Source of the DNA: Escherichia phage UGJNEcP3 | Sequence record: OV876907 | DNA: 64,000 nucleotides | Reading direction: 5' to 3' (one strand) | Part shown: positions 2,548 through 60,680 of the stretch, in pieces | How positions within the stretch are numbered: the stretch's first letter is position 1 | Layout of the letters: the number at the start of each line of letters is the position of its first letter | The notes under the pieces: generated by a model | Database searches by the model: none | Told to the model about the DNA's origin: nothing | The model's input: the letters and a program-made list of their open reading frames with translations, nothing else | Position numbers and translations under genes: made by a program

Positions 2548-3636
2548 ATGAAAGTAAAAGAACTTGACTTTGATGTAGCCTCCTTGTTTAAAGGAGGTTC
2601 AAAGACCTCCGCAGGTCAATCTAAAACACCACCAATAAAAACCACGGTAACCGCTCAGTACCCAGCTGAGCGTGCTTCAGGTAATGATACCTCAACCGAT
2701 ATGGTATTAAACGACCTCTATAAAAATGGATTGCTTTTTACTGCATATAATTTTAGTTCTCGTGTATCTCCGGATTTGCGTAACGACCGTTCGAGTCAAA
2801 TGACTAAAAAGTTCTCAAAAGCTGCTAGTAAACTTACCGGCAATACCGGAGGATTCAGCGCGGTTAAAAACTTGTTTAGTAATAACTCTAAGGGAGTTAA
2901 ATTTGACAACCAAGCTTTGGCAAATATTTTACTCCCACGTTCTAAATCTGACGTAGATTCAGTGTCGCATAAATTTAATGATGTCGGTGAATCATTAATT
3001 ACTAAAGGTGGCGGTACTGCTACAGGTATTTTAAGTAACGTTGCAAGTACTGCGGTATTTGGTGCATTGGAATCTGTAACTAATGGCGTAATGGCTGATT
3101 CAGGTGAACAGATATACACCACCGCCCGTAGTATGTACGCCGGCCCGGATAACCGTACTAAGGTATTCACTTGGGAAATGACCCCACGAAACGCCCAAGA
3201 CCTTATCCAGATTATTAAAATATACGAAATCTTTAATTACTATTCTTATGGTGAAACCGGCAACTCAGCTTTCGCTGGTGAATTAAAAGAGAAGATTGAT
3301 ACCTGGTATCGTTCTACGTTTAAAAAAGAAGCTATTGACAAGTTTGACGGTAAGCTATTAGGGGAAAGTATTACAAGCTTCCTTTCTAATGTTATTGTGG
3401 TAAGTAACCCGACCATTTGGTATATCCGAAACTTTGGCGATAGTAGTTCATATGATGGTCGTGAAGATATTTTTGGTCCATGCCAAATCCAGAGTATCCG
3501 TTTTGATAAAACCCCTGATGGCCAATTTAATGGATTGGCTATTGCTCCTAACTTACCATCTACGTTTAGTTTAGAAGTTACTTTCCGTGAAATTATTACT
3601 CTGAACCGTGGCTCACTTTATACGGAAGGATTCTAA
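2548..3636 (+). CDS. 48: baseplate tail tube cap gp48
   Basis: 362 aa, synteny 29-48-54, size matches T4 gp48. Confidence 0.7.
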   Translation: MKVKELDFDVASLFKGGSKTSAGQSKTPPIKTTVTAQYPAERASGNDTSTDMVLNDLYKNGLLFTAYNFSSRVSPDLRNDRSSQMTKKFSKAASKLTGNTGGFSAVKNLFSNNSKGVKFDNQALANILLPRSKSDVDSVSHKFNDVGESLITKGGGTATGILSNVASTAVFGALESVTNGVMADSGEQIYTTARSMYAGPDNRTKVFTWEMTPRNAQDLIQIIKIYEIFNYYSYGETGNSAFAGELKEKIDTWYRSTFKKEAIDKFDGKLLGESITSFLSNVIVVSNPTIWYIRNFGDSSSYDGREDIFGPCQIQSIRFDKTPDGQFNGLAIAPNLPSTFSLEVTFREIITLNRGSLYTEGF

Positions 3637-4589
3637 TGTATACTTTACAAGAATTTCAGAACCAGGCAATTAATATTGACCTACAGAGGAATAACCTGTT
3701 TAGTGTAGTATTTGCTACAGTTCCTTCTTCTAAATCCCAGGCGCTCCTCGACCAGTTCGGTGGAGCTTTATTTAACAATATCCCATTGAATACCGATTTG
3801 TTTGGTATTACACAAGGAGAGTTGACCCAAGGTGTTACGACATTAGTGACAGCGGGCACTCAGAAGTTGATTCGTAAGTCAGGCATAAGTAAATATCTGA
3901 TTGGAGCTATGTCATCCAGGGTTGTGCAGAGCTTACTAGGAGAGTTTGAAGTAGGTACATATCTGATGGATTTTTTCAATATGGCCTATCCTACGGCAGG
4001 TCTTTTAGTCCACGCCGTTAAAATCCCGGATAATACTTTGAACTACGAAATGGATTTGAACCATAACTCACCTAACATCAAAATTACTGGAAGGGAATAT
4101 TCCCCATTGGTATTAAGCTTCCGTATGGATTCTGAAGCTGCTAACTACCGTGCTTTTAATGATTGGGTCAATAGTGTCCAAGACCCTATTACACAATTAA
4201 GAGCATTGCCTGAAGATGTTGAAGCTGACATCCAAGTCAACCTTCATTCTCGTAATGGATTGCCACATACAGTAGTAATGCTTAATGGATGTGTTCCTGT
4301 AGGTGTTTCATCGCCGGAATTATCTTATGATGGCGATAACCAGATTGCTTCGTTTGATGTTACATTTGCTTATAGAAGTGTACAGACGGGTGCAGTTGGT
4401 AAACAAGCTGCTTATGAATGGCTGGAAGATAAAGTCCTTAAAGGCGTAGCAGGCATAAGTGAGAGTAACTCATTAAGTTCTTCTGTAGCTAAATTAAGTA
4501 GACTTTCAGGAGCTTCTAGTGGATTGACCGGATTGGTTAATACGTTTGGTGGGCGTGCTATTAATAATGGAATATCGAGGTTGCTATAA
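3636..4589 (+). CDS. 54: baseplate tail tube initiator gp54
   Basis: 317 aa, start overlaps the gp48 stop, last gene of the late baseplate operon as in T4. Confidence 0.7.
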   Translation: MYTLQEFQNQAINIDLQRNNLFSVVFATVPSSKSQALLDQFGGALFNNIPLNTDLFGITQGELTQGVTTLVTAGTQKLIRKSGISKYLIGAMSSRVVQSLLGEFEVGTYLMDFFNMAYPTAGLLVHAVKIPDNTLNYEMDLNHNSPNIKITGREYSPLVLSFRMDSEAANYRAFNDWVNSVQDPITQLRALPEDVEADIQVNLHSRNGLPHTVVMLNGCVPVGVSSPELSYDGDNQIASFDVTFAYRSVQTGAVGKQAAYEWLEDKVLKGVAGISESNSLSSSVAKLSRLSGASSGLTGLVNTFGGRAINNGISRLL

Positions 4590-4972: not shown

Positions 4973-7096
4973 CTACATTTTGAATTTATTTGATAAAGAA
5001 GAGATATCCAAAGACGCGGCAAGGATTTCCATAGCTTCATTGCTTTCAGAAATGGATTCACTAATCAAGAACTGACTGAATCCATCCATCAGGCGAACTT
5101 CGCCAGTTTCCATCAAATGGTCACCATCGTAAACAGATTCGCTGAGCTCTGAAGGAGGTGTTACGGTAGCTTCCATAAGGTATTTGTGAGATACTCTATC
5201 ATTCATGGCAAAAGACGCTACTTTATCAACCTTCAACAATAATCCACGCGGAAGGATAATTTCTGCTTCTTCAGCATATTCTGTAAGGTCGCCAGGAGCG
5301 ATAACTTTAACTGCTTCAGCACCTCGAATAACCATACCAATTTCAGCAATTCTATCCGCAGGGCCTTCAGGTGCAATTGGATTACCAAACTCGTCTTCTT
5401 CCCATTCCACCTCTTCGTCATCGACTTCACCCACATCAGATGAACTACCACTAGCCAATTTAAACAACTCATCGGCTGAGGATAAAGAACCTTCATCACC
5501 AACAAAAACTGCTTGGTTGTCGAGGGCCATATAATTTTTACCAAATTCGCCAAAGATGTTAGGCTTTAATGAGGCCGACACAAAGTTCTTAAAGTAAAAT
5601 GTTTTGTTATCGATATTATGACGCAGAATTTTGTATGGTAAATCCTGACCACGATACAAAATAGTACCCTTAGGAAGTTTAATACCCTTAGTAAATGCTG
5701 AGTCTAAATCCTTAATCAATTTAATAGCCGTTGTATTGTTTTCGGATTCAGGTTTACCTAAAAGGAATAAGTTCATAGGAGCATATTCAGCTGCGCAATA
5801 TTCAATAATAGCATTGCTTTCGTCTTTGGTTAAGTCCTTAGGTTTAATGAGCTCACCTGAATAAGCATATGCATCACTAATAGAATCGTTAATTAGTTTA
5901 TAAACGGCTTCCATAGCGAAAGCAATTCGAGAGGCCTTTTCTGAAGGGGAGCCTTTAAAACGAGCGCTCAAGTTATTAACAATTTTCTTAATAATATCCA
6001 GACTATTGGTGGTATTGATTTGCGAAAGGCCACTTAAAAGTCTATCGACTTCTGTATTAAAAAATGCCATATTATTAGAGTAAATTTCAAACCCTTGTTT
6101 ATCTCTATTAGCATAATTTAGTTTAAATTTACTATCAGTCATTAAAGCGTGTGTGAGAGCAATAGTGTATCTAAAGTTGGCAAGGTCCTCGCTCTTAGAT
6201 TTAAACTGAGAAGCCTGGCGCATTTTGGTAATAGCACCTTTTTTAAAGTTCTGACTAATCTGTTCAATACCTTCATTCTCAGGGCCTTCAGCCGTGTGAA
6301 CCGGTACAGAAGCTTCAAACTCGTTATAAACCTGCAATTCTTTAGGGGACAAAGTTTCAGGCTCAGCAGTAGAATACTGCGCGGCCGCTGCCATACGACG
6401 CGAAATCTTAGTACGAGTAATGACAGCCTTATCAGTACGTTTCTCTTCAACTTGTGCAATAGATGCCGCTACGGCTTCTACTTTACTTACGGCCTGGCCG
6501 GTTTTCTTAGAAACATACACTTCGCCAACTTTAGACTCGACTTTAGTATAAAGATTGGCATCAATTTCAGGCATACCCTTGATATCTTCAATATTAGCAC
6601 CACGACGTACTAAAAGAACGTAGGTATGTTTTCCGCTGAATTGGAACATGTGGTCAACAACTTTAAACTTACCACCGGTACGGGCCATAGCCAAACGAGC
6701 TAATACGCGCTGAACGGTAGGGCCTTTACCTTTCATTTTCTTAGTAGGGAAACGGAATAAAACCGCGTCCATTTTAAGTTTGTTTATTTGTTCATATATG
6801 GTATCGAAAATGGTGTTCAGTGTACCGAGTGGATCGGTACCCAAACCACCCTTGAGTTCTGCCGGAGCGCCTTTAGCAGATAAACTCATTAAGATAACAT
6901 GGACGTACTTATCGCCATTTTTAACCATCTTAATAGCGTCGCCTTCAGACGCATAAGATACCATACGCGCTACTAAATTGTCATTACCAGGAGCATGTAC
7001 CGCAAAAATCTGCGGTACGCCTGAGCCAGGTTTAAGATTTGTTACCGGATAGTTTTTAGCGGAATCGCTATCAAAAACTTCGTTTAAATTTTCCAT
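4973..7096 (-). CDS. alt: Alt-like ADP-ribosyltransferase paralog 1 (variant catalytic motif, divergent C-terminus)
   Basis: 707 aa. N-terminal ~230 aa nearly identical to the two neighbours. ART region reads FYFKNFVSAS ... EAEIILPRG: Lys where the R-S-EXE class has Arg, and SAS instead of STS. Confidence 0.75.
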   Translation of the reverse strand: MENLNEVFDSDSAKNYPVTNLKPGSGVPQIFAVHAPGNDNLVARMVSYASEGDAIKMVKNGDKYVHVILMSLSAKGAPAELKGGLGTDPLGTLNTIFDTIYEQINKLKMDAVLFRFPTKKMKGKGPTVQRVLARLAMARTGGKFKVVDHMFQFSGKHTYVLLVRRGANIEDIKGMPEIDANLYTKVESKVGEVYVSKKTGQAVSKVEAVAASIAQVEEKRTDKAVITRTKISRRMAAAAQYSTAEPETLSPKELQVYNEFEASVPVHTAEGPENEGIEQISQNFKKGAITKMRQASQFKSKSEDLANFRYTIALTHALMTDSKFKLNYANRDKQGFEIYSNNMAFFNTEVDRLLSGLSQINTTNSLDIIKKIVNNLSARFKGSPSEKASRIAFAMEAVYKLINDSISDAYAYSGELIKPKDLTKDESNAIIEYCAAEYAPMNLFLLGKPESENNTTAIKLIKDLDSAFTKGIKLPKGTILYRGQDLPYKILRHNIDNKTFYFKNFVSASLKPNIFGEFGKNYMALDNQAVFVGDEGSLSSADELFKLASGSSSDVGEVDDEEVEWEEDEFGNPIAPEGPADRIAEIGMVIRGAEAVKVIAPGDLTEYAEEAEIILPRGLLLKVDKVASFAMNDRVSHKYLMEATVTPPSELSESVYDGDHLMETGEVRLMDGFSQFLISESISESNEAMEILAASLDISSLSNKFKM

Positions 7097-17141: not shown

Positions 17142-17168
17142 AATAATAACACGCTATTCTTAAAGCAT
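17142..17168 (-). promoter_or_regulatory. candidate MotA-dependent middle promoter for gene 31
   Basis: Minus strand ATGCTTTAA (MotA-box-like), 12 nt, TATTAT, about 30 nt upstream of the gp31 ATG. Confidence 0.35.
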
Positions 17169-21659: not shown

Positions 21660-21950
21660 TCATTTGCACTTCTCCTCTTTCAGCCCGGAACGATAATAAC
21701 ATACCATAGATTTCTGGTCTTGTACATATCTTTTTACGTCATTCAACCAAATACGATGTTCTTGGGAATCTTCAAATGGCATTCCAACCCAGGCCTTACC
21801 ATCGATAACCTTAACCTGCCATTTAACCGAATGTTCGGCAATAGGTTGCGGCCATGAAGGGTGGAGTTGTTGTTTAGGCACTACAGGAACATCCTGGGCA
21901 CACCCAACTAACAAGCCAATAGATAACATTACTGCAGACAATTTAATCAT
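21660..21950 (-). CDS. outer-membrane lipoprotein spanin (o-spanin, Rz1 equivalent; T4 pseT.2 position)
   Basis: 96 aa; signal peptide with lipobox LLVGC, Pro-rich mature part, C-terminal Cys residues; start overlaps the upstream i-spanin stop by 4 nt. Confidence 0.6.
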   Translation of the reverse strand: MIKLSAVMLSIGLLVGCAQDVPVVPKQQLHPSWPQPIAEHSVKWQVKVIDGKAWVGMPFEDSQEHRIWLNDVKRYVQDQKSMVCYYRSGLKEEKCK

Positions 21951-22300
21951 TCTGTGATGCTCCTGAAGTCTTTGGCAAAGGAATCGAAGGACTTGTTGAT
22001 TTGTTTTTCGACCAATCCTGGCTTACTTGCCACCACGTGCGCCTTCTTCGAATCTTTACGGAGCTTTTCATTTTCTACCTTAATTTTATCCATTCGGGCA
22101 TTCATTTCAGTAGTACGGAATTCAATATCTGAGTATTGGCCACGAAGGTCATCAACAGCTTCAGCGTTCTGTTTAGCCGTTTGCTGGGTTGTTTTAAGTT
22201 CTTCAGTTAATGTATCAATACGGCTTGATTGATATGAAATCAGACCATAAGCACCTACTGCAAGAGCTCCGGCTAAAAGGTAAATACTTAATTTAGACAT
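21947..22300 (-). CDS. inner-membrane spanin (i-spanin, Rz equivalent; T4 pseT.3 position)
   Basis: 117 aa; N-terminal transmembrane segment LSIYLLAGALAVGAYGLI followed by a charged coiled-coil-like region. Confidence 0.6.
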   Translation of the reverse strand: MSKLSIYLLAGALAVGAYGLISYQSSRIDTLTEELKTTQQTAKQNAEAVDDLRGQYSDIEFRTTEMNARMDKIKVENEKLRKDSKKAHVVASKPGLVEKQINKSFDSFAKDFRSITE

Positions 22301-56515: not shown

Positions 56516-58333
56516 TTACGACATCCAGGCCTTACGGAGTTGGGGGTCATTACCAAGGAGCATTTCGAACTGTTCTTTCCAATCTTCAGGTAATTGAACA
56601 ACATCAAATTTAGGGTCTTGAATCATTCGGCGGTATTCAGCTTTCTCAAGAGAACCTAGTCCTTTGATATACCGAATAGAATGTTTTGGTAGAGAGTCCT
56701 TAGCTTTGGTATAACTAGGAACATCATAGAACCATTCCTGTTCTTTACCGACCTGGGCAATAATTACCGGAGTTTTACAGAAACGTACTCGGCCTTGTTC
56801 GAACAATTCAGGCCATTGGCTAAAGAAGGCTAGCAATGATGGATAAATCGAACCAGTACCATCCACATCGGCATCAGTCATAATAGCAATATTACGATAG
56901 TTAGTTTTCTCTGCAGGTTCACCAATAATCAATCCAGTGATTGCACAGATATCAAATAGTTCCTTGTTCTTCATGATATCTGTTGCTGTCATTCCCCAGG
57001 TATTCATAACCTTACCACGTAATGGATAGCCACCTTGAAGGTCTTTATTACGGACTTCAATGAAAGGACCCATAGCGGAATCACCTTCGGTTAGGAACAG
57101 GGTTGTATCAGCATCTTTGCCGTATAGGTTAGCTTTAATATGCTTATGGACCTTGGCTTTAGAAGCTTTCTTAGCGGCTTTAGTTTCGGCAGCCTTTTCG
57201 GCTGCTAATTTACGTGCTAAAGCAGCTTCAACGATAGGCATAATCAACCCATCAACTTTAAGAATGGCTTGGGCAATTTTCTTGGCATCAATTTGGATAT
57301 GATTACGAATCTCACCAAACGGAGATGTTAAGCGCTCTTTAGTCTGGGAATCAAAACGCATGTTGCTCATATCACGAATGAACATCACCATCGTAAGGCA
57401 TTCTTTAACACGAGCTTTAGTTACTTCAATTCCACGGTATTTCTTTTTAATACCAGGCAGAAGATGTTCACAGATATCATCGAACACACATTCAACGTGG
57501 TGACCACCATTCTTGGTATGGATATTGTTTACATACGTCAGTTGACGGAACCCGTCCGGAGAAGGAGTAAATGCCATCGAAACATTATCAGTTTCCTGGA
57601 TTACAAAGTCTTCACCAAATTGCTTAGCATACTTTTTAAAGTTGCCATCTACTTTTTTACCATTAAAAGTAAATTGGATATCTGGATAAATTACAGCTAG
57701 TGTTTGAAGTCGGTCTAATGTAATATCCAGATAAATTTGGGACAGGCTATTTTCTTCGAAATGGTTAAAGTCCGGAGTGAATATAACCGAAGTACCCTTA
57801 CCTTTAGATTTCTTAGTAGACCAACCTTTGTTTTCCATTCCGTTTGAACAGTTAACAGTAATCTCATTCTCACCATCAGAGGTGATGCCTGTGAACAAAA
57901 CAGAGAAGATATTAGTTAAACTACTACCGACACCATTCATGCCGCCTGTCTTACGCTCAGCGTCATCTCCAAAGTTACCACCTGCCTTTGGAATAGTCCA
58001 TGCAGCTACAGGACCTGGAATTTGTTCACCATTTTGGTCGGTGACCATTGCTTGTGGAATACCACGACCATTATCAGAAACTGAAACCTGGTTATTCTTA
58101 ATTTGAACATCAATTTTATTTGCGAATTTAAAATTGGTACGAATAGCTTCATCGACAGAGTTATCAATGATTTCGTCAATTAATTTAACCAGTCCAGGAA
58201 CATAGTTTACCTGTGTAAAATTACCAAACAGGAATCGACCGTGAGCTTCATTAGCACTGGAGCCAATATACATCCCACTACGTTTTTTGATATGTTCAAT
58301 GTCGGACAGTACTTTAATTTCATTCTTAATCAT
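56516..58333 (-). CDS. 39: DNA topoisomerase II large subunit gp39, full length (includes the region encoded by gene 60 in T4)
   Basis: 605 aa; GHKL ATPase region (IDNSVDEA, DNGRGIP) plus Toprim region (TEGDSA, IMTDADVDG) in one uninterrupted ORF. Confidence 0.85.
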   Translation of the reverse strand: MIKNEIKVLSDIEHIKKRSGMYIGSSANEAHGRFLFGNFTQVNYVPGLVKLIDEIIDNSVDEAIRTNFKFANKIDVQIKNNQVSVSDNGRGIPQAMVTDQNGEQIPGPVAAWTIPKAGGNFGDDAERKTGGMNGVGSSLTNIFSVLFTGITSDGENEITVNCSNGMENKGWSTKKSKGKGTSVIFTPDFNHFEENSLSQIYLDITLDRLQTLAVIYPDIQFTFNGKKVDGNFKKYAKQFGEDFVIQETDNVSMAFTPSPDGFRQLTYVNNIHTKNGGHHVECVFDDICEHLLPGIKKKYRGIEVTKARVKECLTMVMFIRDMSNMRFDSQTKERLTSPFGEIRNHIQIDAKKIAQAILKVDGLIMPIVEAALARKLAAEKAAETKAAKKASKAKVHKHIKANLYGKDADTTLFLTEGDSAMGPFIEVRNKDLQGGYPLRGKVMNTWGMTATDIMKNKELFDICAITGLIIGEPAEKTNYRNIAIMTDADVDGTGSIYPSLLAFFSQWPELFEQGRVRFCKTPVIIAQVGKEQEWFYDVPSYTKAKDSLPKHSIRYIKGLGSLEKAEYRRMIQDPKFDVVQLPEDWKEQFEMLLGNDPQLRKAWMS

Positions 58334-58387
58334 GTTATTTCCTCATGTAGTAGGAGAATATTATCCCATTTCACTTAAAGCATAAAA

Positions 58388-58399
58388 GGGCCGAAGCCC
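58388..58399 (-). terminator. C(UUCG)G hairpin terminator
   Basis: Minus strand GGGC-UUCG-GCCC followed by UUUUAUGCUUU, directly after the stop of ORF 58400-58660. Confidence 0.45.
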
Positions 58400-58660
58400 T
58401 TAATCAAATCGAATGGTCGACTTTTTAAAGAATAGCCCAGAACAAACTGTTCCTTCAACCCTTTTACCTGTCGGACCTACAGCAATAAAGCCTGTACGTT
58501 GGAAATCATCTTCAGAGCAGCCAAATAGGTTGTATCCCGTGATTTGGATTTGTTCATAGCCATTTGCATCCAATACACGGGTAGCATTATCAGCATCAGT
58601 ACATCCAACCAGTGAAACTGCTAATACGAGAGCTGCAATAGAACGATTAATATATTTCAT
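58400..58660 (-). CDS. predicted lipoprotein of unknown function
   Basis: 86 aa; signal peptide with lipobox LVGCT (MKYINRSIAALVLAVSLVGCTDADN...); three further Cys in the mature part. Confidence 0.5.
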   Translation of the reverse strand: MKYINRSIAALVLAVSLVGCTDADNATRVLDANGYEQIQITGYNLFGCSEDDFQRTGFIAVGPTGKRVEGTVCSGLFFKKSTIRFD

Positions 58661-58850
58661 AATTTCTCACTTAGTCAGTAGGTCGTAAAACCCGCCATTA
58701 ACATGTTTAGGAGCCGAGACTAACCGAACAGCCAGCCGTTGGCAATCAGGACAAACATCATTATCTCTTTCAGATATTTTCTTGATTTTTTTCGTATTCT
58801 TTTGCACAGTCTTCTGATTGGCATTTATAATCATAAAGTGGCATCTTCTA

Positions 58851-59222
58851 TTATTCCTTAAAGTGGGCTTTCAACATCTGGTAAACTGTCCAGGCTTCAG
58901 AATTATTAGAGATAGTGATTTTAGTCAAAGGGAATTCGCTTGGCTCAGATGGAGCCGCGTCTTCGCATTCATCTTCGGTATCGTCATCTTTTTCTTCTTC
59001 AAAGAAACGACGCTCATCTTTCTTTATGAATAGGCTCGTAAATTCACCAGTTGATAATTCCATTTTATACACATCACCATCTTCAATTCTGACTGGTCTA
59101 AATCCCTCGCCATTGATTATAGTATCGGCTATATTATCATTATCTGTACATAACAAACGGAATTTGCTTTCGGCATCATTATCTTTAAAATAATACCACT
59201 TATCGGTTTCAAATTTGGTCAT
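58851..59222 (-). CDS. hypothetical acidic protein (start uncertain)
   Basis: Track ORF 58851-59315 overlaps the upstream gene; internal ATG at 59222; acidic C-terminal tract. Confidence 0.35.
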   Translation of the reverse strand: MTKFETDKWYYFKDNDAESKFRLLCTDNDNIADTIINGEGFRPVRIEDGDVYKMELSTGEFTSLFIKKDERRFFEEEKDDDTEDECEDAAPSEPSEFPLTKITISNNSEAWTVYQMLKAHFKE

Positions 59223-59433
59223 TATAATTCTCCTTCCAGAATTCAGTGCCTTCAGCAGTGATTTCACGGAACACTGCATAGATAGGGGTTTTATCACCCT
59301 GATTTTCGTATACATAAACCGACGATAAATGAGAAAACGTATCAGAATATTCCTTTTGAACCACGATTAAATCAGGGTTGAACAGAACATCTTCAAATTC
59401 TTCACGAGTCGAGTTCACAGTAACTTTAGCCAT
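59209..59433 (-). CDS. hypothetical protein
   Basis: 74 aa ORF with promoter module at about 59464-59493. Confidence 0.4.
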   Translation of the reverse strand: MAKVTVNSTREEFEDVLFNPDLIVVQKEYSDTFSHLSSVYVYENQGDKTPIYAVFREITAEGTEFWKENYNDQI

Positions 59434-59506
59434 TTTATTTTCCTCTCATTTGTTGATAGGGTAATAGTATCACACTACTACCCTGTTGTATACCACTTTT
59501 TAAACT

Positions 59507-60058
59507 TTATGCAAAATGAATATCAGCATACTCAACAATAAAACTTTCAGGAACTACTTTAAAGGTGCCAAGGAACACGATGTTATACAGCTTAACACCT
59601 TCTTCAACCCATTGGTCTGTGATATAACCGGACATGCTGGTAGTTTCGTAAGTGGGGCCATACTTGCAATTGTATTCAAACGGTTTAGGTGAAACGAAAA
59701 AGACACCTTTACCTAATTTCCATTTAAAATCAACACCAACATGAGATCGGTCAATAGTTTCAACGTCTTGAGCTACTACGCCACGGATATCATTGCTTTC
59801 ACATACATACCCATCATGGGATTCAACTTCTTCAACTACAGGAGCGATGTATCCGGTAAATTCAGTAGATTCCAAGAATTTAGCACGCACATATCCGAAT
59901 TGAGTTTCGGTCTGGCCATTTTTAGGAATAATACGCACTTTAACTTCTTTAATTCCACCTACTAAATTGGTACGAATACCTGCAACTTCAACTAAACTGC
60001 CCGCAGCTTTTGAACGAGACTTTTTGGATACACGAACAATTTCACCGATAGTAATCAT
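59507..60058 (-). CDS. hypothetical protein, paralog A of a tandem pair
   Basis: 183 aa; C-terminal block GYITDQWVEEGVKLYNIVFLGTFKVVPESF shared with ORF 60132-60680. Confidence 0.45.
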   Translation of the reverse strand: MITIGEIVRVSKKSRSKAAGSLVEVAGIRTNLVGGIKEVKVRIIPKNGQTETQFGYVRAKFLESTEFTGYIAPVVEEVESHDGYVCESNDIRGVVAQDVETIDRSHVGVDFKWKLGKGVFFVSPKPFEYNCKYGPTYETTSMSGYITDQWVEEGVKLYNIVFLGTFKVVPESFIVEYADIHFA

Positions 60059-60131
60059 AATTTTTCTCTCTTGGTTAAAGGATTATAATCCATAAGAGCC
60101 ATTATAACATGGCTCTCGATAAAGTAAACTA

Positions 60132-60680
60132 TTAATTCAATACATTAACCACTGCACTACGAGGTACTACGCTAAAATCACCAGCATGTACAACGTTCAG
60201 GAGTTCAACACCATCTTCAATCCACTGGTCTGTTACCCAACCACAGATAGGATTATCAAAAGGACGACGGATAGCCACAGCAGCACACAACAGGTCGGTA
60301 GGGCCTTGTTCTTCAACTTCTTGGAACAGGATGAACTCATCTTCATAAACCAGGTTTTTCTCTATTTTGTTATTATCTAACCGGCGGCCGTGGATGACGT
60401 AAGATTTGTCAAACCACTCACTTTTGGCGAATTCTTCAACAATAAATTCGCCTTCGCCAAAAACATCAGTCAGAGTTTTATAACCAGAAATCAAGGCCTT
60501 AATTTTAATTTCAGGTTCAACCAGTTTGTAGGTTTTGCCGATTTCGATAGTCTGAGTAGTCATAGTGGTTTCCTTAATTTCCAGTGGTTTAACAGGGCAT
60601 ACATAAGTGCTTAAAACATCAAAATCAATCAGTTTAGCTGCCGGATTCGGGGTGTATTTAGGGTTGTAATTAAATTTCAT
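60132..60680 (-). CDS. hypothetical protein, paralog B of a tandem pair
   Basis: 182 aa; C-terminal block GWVTDQWIEDGVELLNVVHAGDFSVVPRSA; start overlaps the upstream stop (ATGA). Confidence 0.45.
   Translation of the reverse strand: MKFNYNPKYTPNPAAKLIDFDVLSTYVCPVKPLEIKETTMTTQTIEIGKTYKLVEPEIKIKALISGYKTLTDVFGEGEFIVEEFAKSEWFDKSYVIHGRRLDNNKIEKNLVYEDEFILFQEVEEQGPTDLLCAAVAIRRPFDNPICGWVTDQWIEDGVELLNVVHAGDFSVVPRSAVVNVLN

Follow-up and report, generated by a model that had tools for sequence, protein, structure and literature searches.

Small phage lipoproteins encoded outside the lysis cassette are known from phage T5 (Llp) and from phages T1, phi80 and N15 (Cor), where they are made early, face the periplasm from the outer membrane and block receptors; Llp, from the virulent phage T5, is small, is expressed early and has a disulfide, and the llp and cor genes are linked to receptor-binding genes. 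The T4 group has two further early, non-essential proteins that target the envelope, the superinfection-exclusion proteins Spackle (gp61.3) and Imm, of which Spackle is a small periplasmic protein acting independently of the receptor, and the o-spanins (Rz1, T4 PseT.2) are likewise outer-membrane lipoproteins. Here we analyse an open reading frame (ORF) of 86 amino acids (aa) at positions 58400-58660, minus strand, in a 64,000-nucleotide (nt) stretch of DNA from Escherichia phage UGJNEcP3 (sequence record OV876907; the whole of this stretch is referred to as the window). Sequence and gene order identify this ORF as an ortholog of T4 gene 39.1, and we consider this identity, together with a topology as an envelope lipoprotein, to be very probable.

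An ortholog of T4 gene 39.1

From 57900 to 59500 the window shares 100% identity with Escherichia phage UGJNEcP4 and ~95% with the Dhakavirus phages JS10, JS98 and IME08, and the corresponding ORF in JS10, which lies between 39 and 39.2, is annotated as 39.1. The order cef, goF-like, 39.2, 39.1, 39 in the window matches that of JS10 (where it reads rIIA, rIIA.1, 39, 39.1, 39.2, goF-like, cef, motB), T4 and T6, and the neighbours were recognised by profile as gene 39 (phrog_543, expect value (E) = 1e-280), Cef (PF24050, E = 3e-32) and 39.2, an FmdB-like zinc ribbon, alongside a goF-like ORF. The window's gp39.1 is 98-100% identical to the proteins of JS10, JS98 and IME08 and 80% identical to those of T2, T4 and T6, whilst a profile scan matched its residues 1-85 to PHROG 902 (‘unknown function’, E = 6.1e-35). 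T4 gp39.1 is alike in length (86 aa), in its position between 39.2 and 39 and in the hairpin downstream; the window protein differs from it by 17 substitutions in the mature domain, mostly on the surface, and by one in the signal peptide, none of them touching anything essential. The family of gp39.1 is already catalogued, if uncharacterised, and is not something new, and UniRef and a few GenBank records already name its members ‘lipoprotein’. A first-pass annotation of the window, made from the sequence alone, had placed the ORF next to gene 39, and it does adjoin that gene, which encodes a 605-aa topoisomerase II large subunit at 56516-58333. The features of the ORF are as follows.

58400..58660, minus strand: coding sequence, ortholog of T4 gene 39.1, predicted prolipoprotein (86 aa plus stop; from the ORF list)
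58604..58660, minus strand: predicted signal peptide, residues 1-19 (read from the sequence; PS00013 passed)
58601..58612, minus strand: lipobox L17-V18-G19-C20 (PS00013; conservation of the Cys in homologs; LPAM_1)
58403..58603, minus strand: mature domain, residues 20-86 (67 aa, 7.3 kDa, isoelectric point 4.85; AlphaFold2 model)
58517..58519, minus strand: codon of Cys48, predicted disulfide partner of Cys73 (co-variation in 308 homologs)
58442..58444, minus strand: codon of Cys73, predicted disulfide partner of Cys48 (co-variation in 308 homologs)

Lipoprotein signal

The protein encoded on the minus strand of 58400-58660 reads MKYINRSIAALVLAVSLVGCTDADNATRVLDANGYEQIQITGYNLFGCSEDDFQRTGFIAVGPTGKRVEGTVCSGLFFKKSTIRFD; its N-terminus up to and including Cys20 is MKYINRSIAALVLAVSLVGC, and TDADNATRVL... 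follows. The signal peptide opens with the n-region MKYINR, two of whose six residues are positively charged, and continues with the hydrophobic SIAALVLAVSLVG; the h-region is SIAALVLAVSL, with a core of 11-13 residues at a mean Kyte-Doolittle hydropathy of 2.45. The codon of Cys20, at 58601-58603, marks the predicted site of lipid attachment and cleavage, with Thr at +2 and Asp at +3. We looked for a charged n-region, a hydrophobic h-region, the pattern [LVI][ASTVI][GAS]C and a Cys at positions 15-35, and the ORF has all of these, as MKYINR, SIAALVLAVSL and LVGC with the Cys at position 20. The PROSITE rule PS00013 was run on 1234 candidate starts in 399 ORF segments of at least 50 aa from the whole 64-kb window and was passed by two starts only, those of this ORF and of the o-spanin at 21660-21950. 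Because there were just these two matches among 1234 starts, the lipobox signal is not a chance match, and the PS00013 match of the ORF lies far beyond chance. The ORF is predicted to encode a Sec-exported lipoprotein of the signal-peptidase-II type.

The classical signal peptide and the LVGC lipobox followed by Thr had both been described in the first-pass annotation, and they are borne out by PS00013, which the ORF passes in the signal peptide and lipobox check proposed there, and by the family-wide conservation of the Cys. This second lipoprotein had also been called unrelated to the o-spanin at 21660-21950, and BLASTP indeed gave no alignment between the two at E <= 100.

Across the family, 296 of 308 aligned homologs retain the lipobox Cys and the Pfam family LPAM_1 matches 14 of 130 members; the +2 residue is Thr in 82% and Ser in 11% (~93% together), and the +3 residue is Asp or Asn. 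Members that lack the lipobox Cys (P0122, P0136, P0140, P0155, P0156, P0161, P0164, P0166, P0177, P0179, P0188 and P0214) would be membrane-anchored or cleaved by signal peptidase I. In E. coli, lipoproteins with Asp at +2 stay behind in the inner membrane (Lol avoidance), and by this rule alone gp39.1 would be sorted to the outer membrane, because its +2 residue is Thr and not Asp.

Cysteines and fold of the mature domain

Cys48 and Cys73 are both present in 300 and both absent in four of the 308 aligned homologs, counts that take no account of kinship among the sequences. The other four are apparent single losses, of which two are one-column alignment shifts, one is a truncated sequence and one (P0098, with Tyr at 48) stays a single loss. 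A second pair, at 74/81, is found in 36 of the 308 and never singly. Since the cysteines of each pair co-vary, they point to disulfides and so to an oxidising, periplasmic location, and Cys48-Cys73 is predicted to be a periplasmic disulfide. Three additional cysteines had been counted in the mature domain when the ORF was first described; this number has to be corrected, as three is the total (C20, C48 and C73) and two are left besides the lipidated Cys. One member of the family, P0112, is a tandem duplication of the gp39.1 domain with degenerate cysteines.

Structure prediction had been named as another check, and AlphaFold2 with a 130-sequence alignment gave a fold for the mature domain with a predicted local distance difference test score (pLDDT) of 88.1 and a predicted template modelling score of 0.75, the full-length model reaching a pLDDT of 80. 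In the model, one helix (residues 23-32, or 4-13 of the mature protein) lies on four antiparallel strands. Only three residues, and so almost no linker, separate the lipidated Cys20 from this helix, for which reason the mature domain would have to sit on the membrane surface. Besides the cysteines, the near-invariant positions are L30, G34, G42, D52, T56, F58, A60, G65, G70, V72, K79, T82 and R84. Going by the alternation pattern of the strands, F58, A60, V68, G70, V72 and I83 would form the core under the helix, and T82, R84 and C73 would lie on the open face together with the stapled 44-53 loop (D51, D52).

Family distribution, selection and expression

The protein was found by tblastn in 1066 of 50,697 phage records, mostly T4-like phages of Enterobacteria, and also in Pseudomonas podophage YA3, Rhizobium and Sinorhizobium phages, a Serratia Ackermannviridae phage, a Burkholderia jumbo phage and Aeromonas phages. 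A profile run against 1.84 billion representative proteins returned 2237 clusters at 50% identity (E <= 1e-3), 1064 of them at E <= 1e-10, and nearly all are 80-120 aa long. Every member that carries a name comes from a phage or an uncultured virus, with no bacterial names among the matches. Scanning one genome per bacterial species with the single peptide pattern FKNSTIRF, a search of narrow reach, found one bacterial locus, in an assembly of Flagellimonas marina (NZ_JBHSCL010000010.1), which we rejected as a bacterial homolog. The contig, at 178,077 bp of T4-like genome size, holds a 7-kb stretch that is 98% identical to Cronobacter/Enterobacter Pseudotevenvirus phages, e.g. JC03, and has its radical-SAM, endolysin and PhoH genes arranged as in T4-like phages; it is, almost certainly, the genome of an enterobacterial phage that has contaminated the assembly of a Bacteroidota species. 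As far as seen, the gp39.1 family is phage-only. No conserved neighbour gene emerged from seven unrelated phage contexts, which were arrays of small genes of unknown function throughout, and the longer members held no informative domain fusion, their extra length being mis-called starts or low-complexity tails.

The ratio of non-synonymous to synonymous substitution rates (dN/dS, Nei-Gojobori) is 0.035 against JS10 and 0.11-0.13 against T4, T2 and T6, at a dS of 1.15-1.38; 39.1 is a real gene under purifying selection. In time-resolved T4 omics its RNA is classed as early, and its protein is detected and classed as late (PMC9697503, supplementary files 4 and 6). The 39-56 region of T4 can be deleted (PMC8262927; bioRxiv 10.1101/2021.01.19.427310), and dCas13d knock-down of T4 39.1 (CRISPRi-ART) was scored ‘Not Fit’, i.e. 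fitness was unaffected (PMC11879866 supplement). The guides used for T4 39.1 lie at T4 coordinates 5565-5605 (PMC11879866 supplementary files 8, 15 and 25).

The T4 reference record

In the T4 reference (NC_000866 / AF158101; components X06220 and M89919), 39.1 is annotated as a 65-aa ORF from an internal ATG, with no signal peptide; upstream of this start the reference reads ...LINSTDAD-stop, and its gp39.2 is shortened to 45 aa. The re-sequenced T4 genome MT984581, when translated, encodes an intact 86-aa lipoprotein with an LIGC lipobox and a 58-aa gp39.2. Comparing the excerpts 3590-3720 of NC_000866 and 400-530 of MT984581, we found two single-base indels and several substitutions within ~110 nt at the 39.2/39.1 junction. 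More than ten other T4 genomes, including T4T, match the reference stretch at 93-94% over 138-140 bases, not 141, and at least ten re-sequenced T4 genomes share the 140-base, 94.4% match of MT984581. The reading of T4 39.1 as a pseudogene, with a lipobox of LINS and a frameshift, was tried and dropped, as these changes are confined to the old reference records and the gene is intact in MT984581. Because the re-sequenced T4 genomes differ from it and MT984581 encodes 86 aa, the T4 reference at 39.1 is either erroneous or that of an atypical stock. In the CRISPRi-ART supplement, T4 gp39.1 (T4p007) is listed as a PHROG singleton (PMC11879866); the misrepresentation of 39.1 and 39.2 in NC_000866 has been carried over into PHROG assignment and into the design of knock-down guides. 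In the T2 record PV648364.1, a 128-aa ORF on the opposite strand (288-674) is annotated over the 39.1 locus, and the intact 39.1 is left unannotated.

Transcription and neighbouring genes

The features around the ORF are the following.

58386..58401, minus strand: C(UUCG)G tetraloop hairpin overlapping the stop codon (6-bp GC-rich stem; from the sequence)
58358..58382, minus strand: MotA-box-like candidate middle promoter of gene 39 (TGCTTTA, 12 nt, TAATAT; pattern match)
58667..58844, minus strand: gene 39.2, FmdB-like zinc ribbon, counterpart of T4 NwgI (profile match and comparison with JS10)
60101..60128, minus strand: best upstream match to a sigma-70/early-type promoter (TTTACT, 16 nt, TG-TATAAT; 10/12 matches, extended -10)

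On one strand, motB to 39.1 follow each other at close quarters, with the 39.2 stop 6 nt ahead of the 39.1 start, and motB-cef-goF-39.2-39.1 is likely to be one early unit read from the promoter at 60101..60128, with 39.1 as its last gene. The ORF had been credited with a terminator of its own. What stands of this is the C(UUCG)G hairpin at the stop codon, which is kept in JS10, T4, T2 and T6 with one compensatory pair (C-G/G-C); the U-tract after it is interrupted (UUUUAUGCUUUA) and doubles as the MotA-box-like element just upstream of gene 39, and for these reasons termination at the hairpin may not be efficient. The hairpin may be a terminator or a 3' stabiliser of the early transcript. The MotA-box consensus is that of T4 middle promoters; searched over the whole window as TGCTTYA, 11-13 nt and TANNNT, the MotA-box-plus-minus-10 pattern occurs eight times against 1.7 expected, seven of the eight on the minus strand. 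The sites, at 17143, 32168, 33493, 47394, 49140, 53629, 53910 and 58358, are candidate middle promoters.

Gene 39 itself (56516-58333, minus strand) is the uninterrupted 605-aa form, which spans the split gp39 and gp60 of T4 and is free of the mobA/60.1 insertion and the bypass element. The frame of 39.2 is split in the window by one additional A in a run of seven (T7 at 58786-58792 on the plus strand), where JS10 and T4 have A6, and the first and second CxxC fall in different frames; this may reflect slippage, a record in which the homopolymer was misread during sequencing, or a genuine pseudogene. Further upstream, the ORFs at 59507-60058 and 60132-60680 on the minus strand encode 183 and 182 aa and are MotB and MotB.1-like; they have a similar C-terminal segment (…TDQW(V/I)E(E/D)GV…VVP…), which suggests a tandem paralog pair. 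Between 39 and 39.2, RB69 carries ORF005c (140 aa) and no 39.1 (excerpt 3048-3470), whereas in T6 39.1 is accompanied by an ORF005c-like gene (excerpt 1601-1972); accessory genes thus vary at the 39/39.2 junction.

Proposed role and alternative explanations

We propose that the gp39.1 precursor would be exported by Sec, then lipidated and cleaved at Cys20 by Lgt/LspA/Lnt, and that the Lol system would sort the product to the inner leaflet of the outer membrane, where the 67-residue mature domain, stapled by the periplasmic Cys48-Cys73 disulfide, would rest directly on the membrane with no tether in between. There it would serve as a non-essential accessory factor whose binding partner is some conserved component located on or close to the periplasmic side of the outer membrane, and not the phage's own primary receptor; such binding may condition or protect the envelope of the infected cell, by excluding secondary phages after adsorption or by protecting against damage from outside. 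To this explanation as a whole, a 39.1 lipoprotein acting on a conserved envelope component, we assign a probability of about 40%. A conserved, receptor-independent target is favoured by the near-identity of the mature protein in T2, T4 and T6 and by the presence of the family in unrelated phages of many Proteobacteria. Within the same phage group, Spackle and Imm combine early expression, dispensability and an envelope target much as proposed here for gp39.1. However, gp39.1 has no similarity to them in PHROG or Pfam scans, is predicted to be lipid-anchored and belongs to a family that extends far beyond T4-like phages, for which last reason its target would not be a T4-type tail lysozyme alone. 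Receptor-independent exclusion or envelope protection is possible; as a mechanism we hold it tentatively, ahead of a periplasmic inhibitor and then of an anti-defence factor.

Several points weigh against this proposal. Searches of Pfam, NCBIfam, PADLOC and PDB sequences with the single protein and with the 130-sequence profile yielded signal-peptide noise only, Foldseek against the PDB gave nothing below E = 0.8, and BFVD returned only uncharacterised members of the family; the literature search found no functional study of gp39.1, PHROG 902 or T-even lipoproteins, and no experiment or homology ties the family to any function. Sorting to the outer membrane follows from the E. coli +2 rule only. 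In addition, 12 of the 308 homologs (~4%) are without the lipobox Cys and retain a hydrophobic N-terminus, and because anchoring may thus be dispensable, the case for an outer-membrane target is weakened. Most of the invariant polar residues (D52, T56, K79, T82 and R84) may be structural and not a binding site, and variable surface positions could carry the specificity for a partner. The knock-down, too, is weak evidence, since the guides against 39.1 were placed at the reference ORF's false start and carry reference-specific bases (PMC11879866), and the ‘Not Fit’ call may be unreliable.

Receptor masking, which the first-pass annotation put forward by analogy along with superinfection exclusion, would have gp39.1 bind and inactivate the phage's own outer-membrane receptor from its periplasmic face, so that superinfection is blocked and progeny are spared on debris. 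A small, early outer-membrane lipoprotein with a disulfide in a virulent phage would be like T5 Llp, and the PHROG scan gave a weak match to Cor (phrog_1119, E = 0.068) and none to Llp; the Cor match, however, covers residues 8-47, mostly signal peptide, and no stretch of it passes alone. The receptors of T2, T4 and T6 are unlike, being FadL/OmpF, OmpC and Tsx, yet T2 and T4 have the same mature gp39.1 and T6 one that is changed at a single residue, and so the protein does not track the receptor. Unlike llp and cor, the gene adjoins the topoisomerase gene 39 and 39.2 and not tail-fibre or adhesin genes, and the family, with members in podo-, myo- and jumbo phages whose hosts are unrelated, is spread over far more hosts. 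Having failed on homology, gene linkage and receptor co-variation, masking of the phage's own receptor is probably not what gp39.1 does, and we rank it below both an inhibitor and an anti-defence factor. As an inhibitor, the helix-on-sheet domain would bind and block a conserved periplasmic or outer-membrane enzyme of the host, for example a nuclease, a protease or a peptidoglycan hydrolase, in the manner of cystatins, PepSY propeptides and the colicin M immunity protein. The likeness of gp39.1 to small alpha+beta domains of the cystatin, PepSY or VirB8 type is weak and generic, that of a common motif, with Foldseek E > 0.8 and no family signatures. We give this explanation a rather low probability. 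An anti-defence or host-range factor, neutralising an envelope-associated host defence or a prophage exclusion system and mattering on particular wild hosts only, would suit a gene that is expressed early, lies in a variable accessory locus (RB69 has another gene there and T6 has both), is dispensable on laboratory strains and belongs to a phage-only, widespread family. Against this, we found no PADLOC-related or anti-defence homology and, in the literature searched, no report of a host-dependent phenotype, and conservation across very different hosts would need a very widespread defence target; we regard it as unlikely.

A part in lysis, in which gp39.1 would modulate, as infection ends, the action of spanin, holin or endolysin or the integrity of the outer membrane, draws on its predicted resemblance to o-spanins as an outer-membrane lipoprotein (the window's o-spanin even shares the LVGC lipobox), on the late accumulation of the T4 protein from an early RNA and on a homolog in Citrobacter phage Miller that lies ~1.2 kb upstream of the endolysin gene. 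In most genomes examined, however, the gene is unlinked to lysis genes, and the window has a spanin pair of its own at 21660-22300, comprising the o-spanin (21660-21950, 96 aa, LVGC) and an overlapping i-spanin-like ORF (21947-22300, 117 aa). In contrast to o-spanins, gp39.1 has no adjacent or embedded i-spanin gene, no membrane-anchored coiled-coil neighbour being found at the locus; its mature domain is folded, with a single Pro, and not proline-rich or disordered; it is transcribed early, not late; and it has no sequence similarity to them. We rejected gp39.1 as an o-spanin on the missing i-spanin partner, the folded domain and the early RNA, and an accessory role in lysis is quite improbable. 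That the ORF is a chance frame or a non-functional remnant had nothing in its favour beyond small size and the lack of a known function. It is already refuted by the conservation and expression data, i.e. a dN/dS of 0.03-0.13 (over JS10, T4, T2 and T6), detection of the protein in T4-infected cells, occurrence in 1066 phage records and 2237 clusters, co-varying cysteines and a confidently predicted fold, and we regard its probability as negligible.

Implications

The prediction of an early, outer-membrane-anchored, disulfide-bonded periplasmic protein, made for a T4-type gene of unknown function, is cheap to test, and any function established for it in T4 or T2 would supply the annotation of thousands of phage genes in a family that is missing from Pfam. 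We suggest, tentatively, that the gp39.1 family may be a large class of disulfide-stapled periplasmic mini-domains that hug the membrane, are exclusive to phages and neutralise one conserved component of the Gram-negative envelope, be it a host enzyme or sensor or a step of an incoming phage. If true, this would be a new family of exclusion or host-takeover factors that work at the envelope and independently of the receptor, overlooked in T4 itself because the reference record shortens the gene to 65 aa without a signal peptide; and if gp39.1 does act on a conserved envelope component, it could point to a new way in which virulent phages protect or remodel the envelope of the infected cell.

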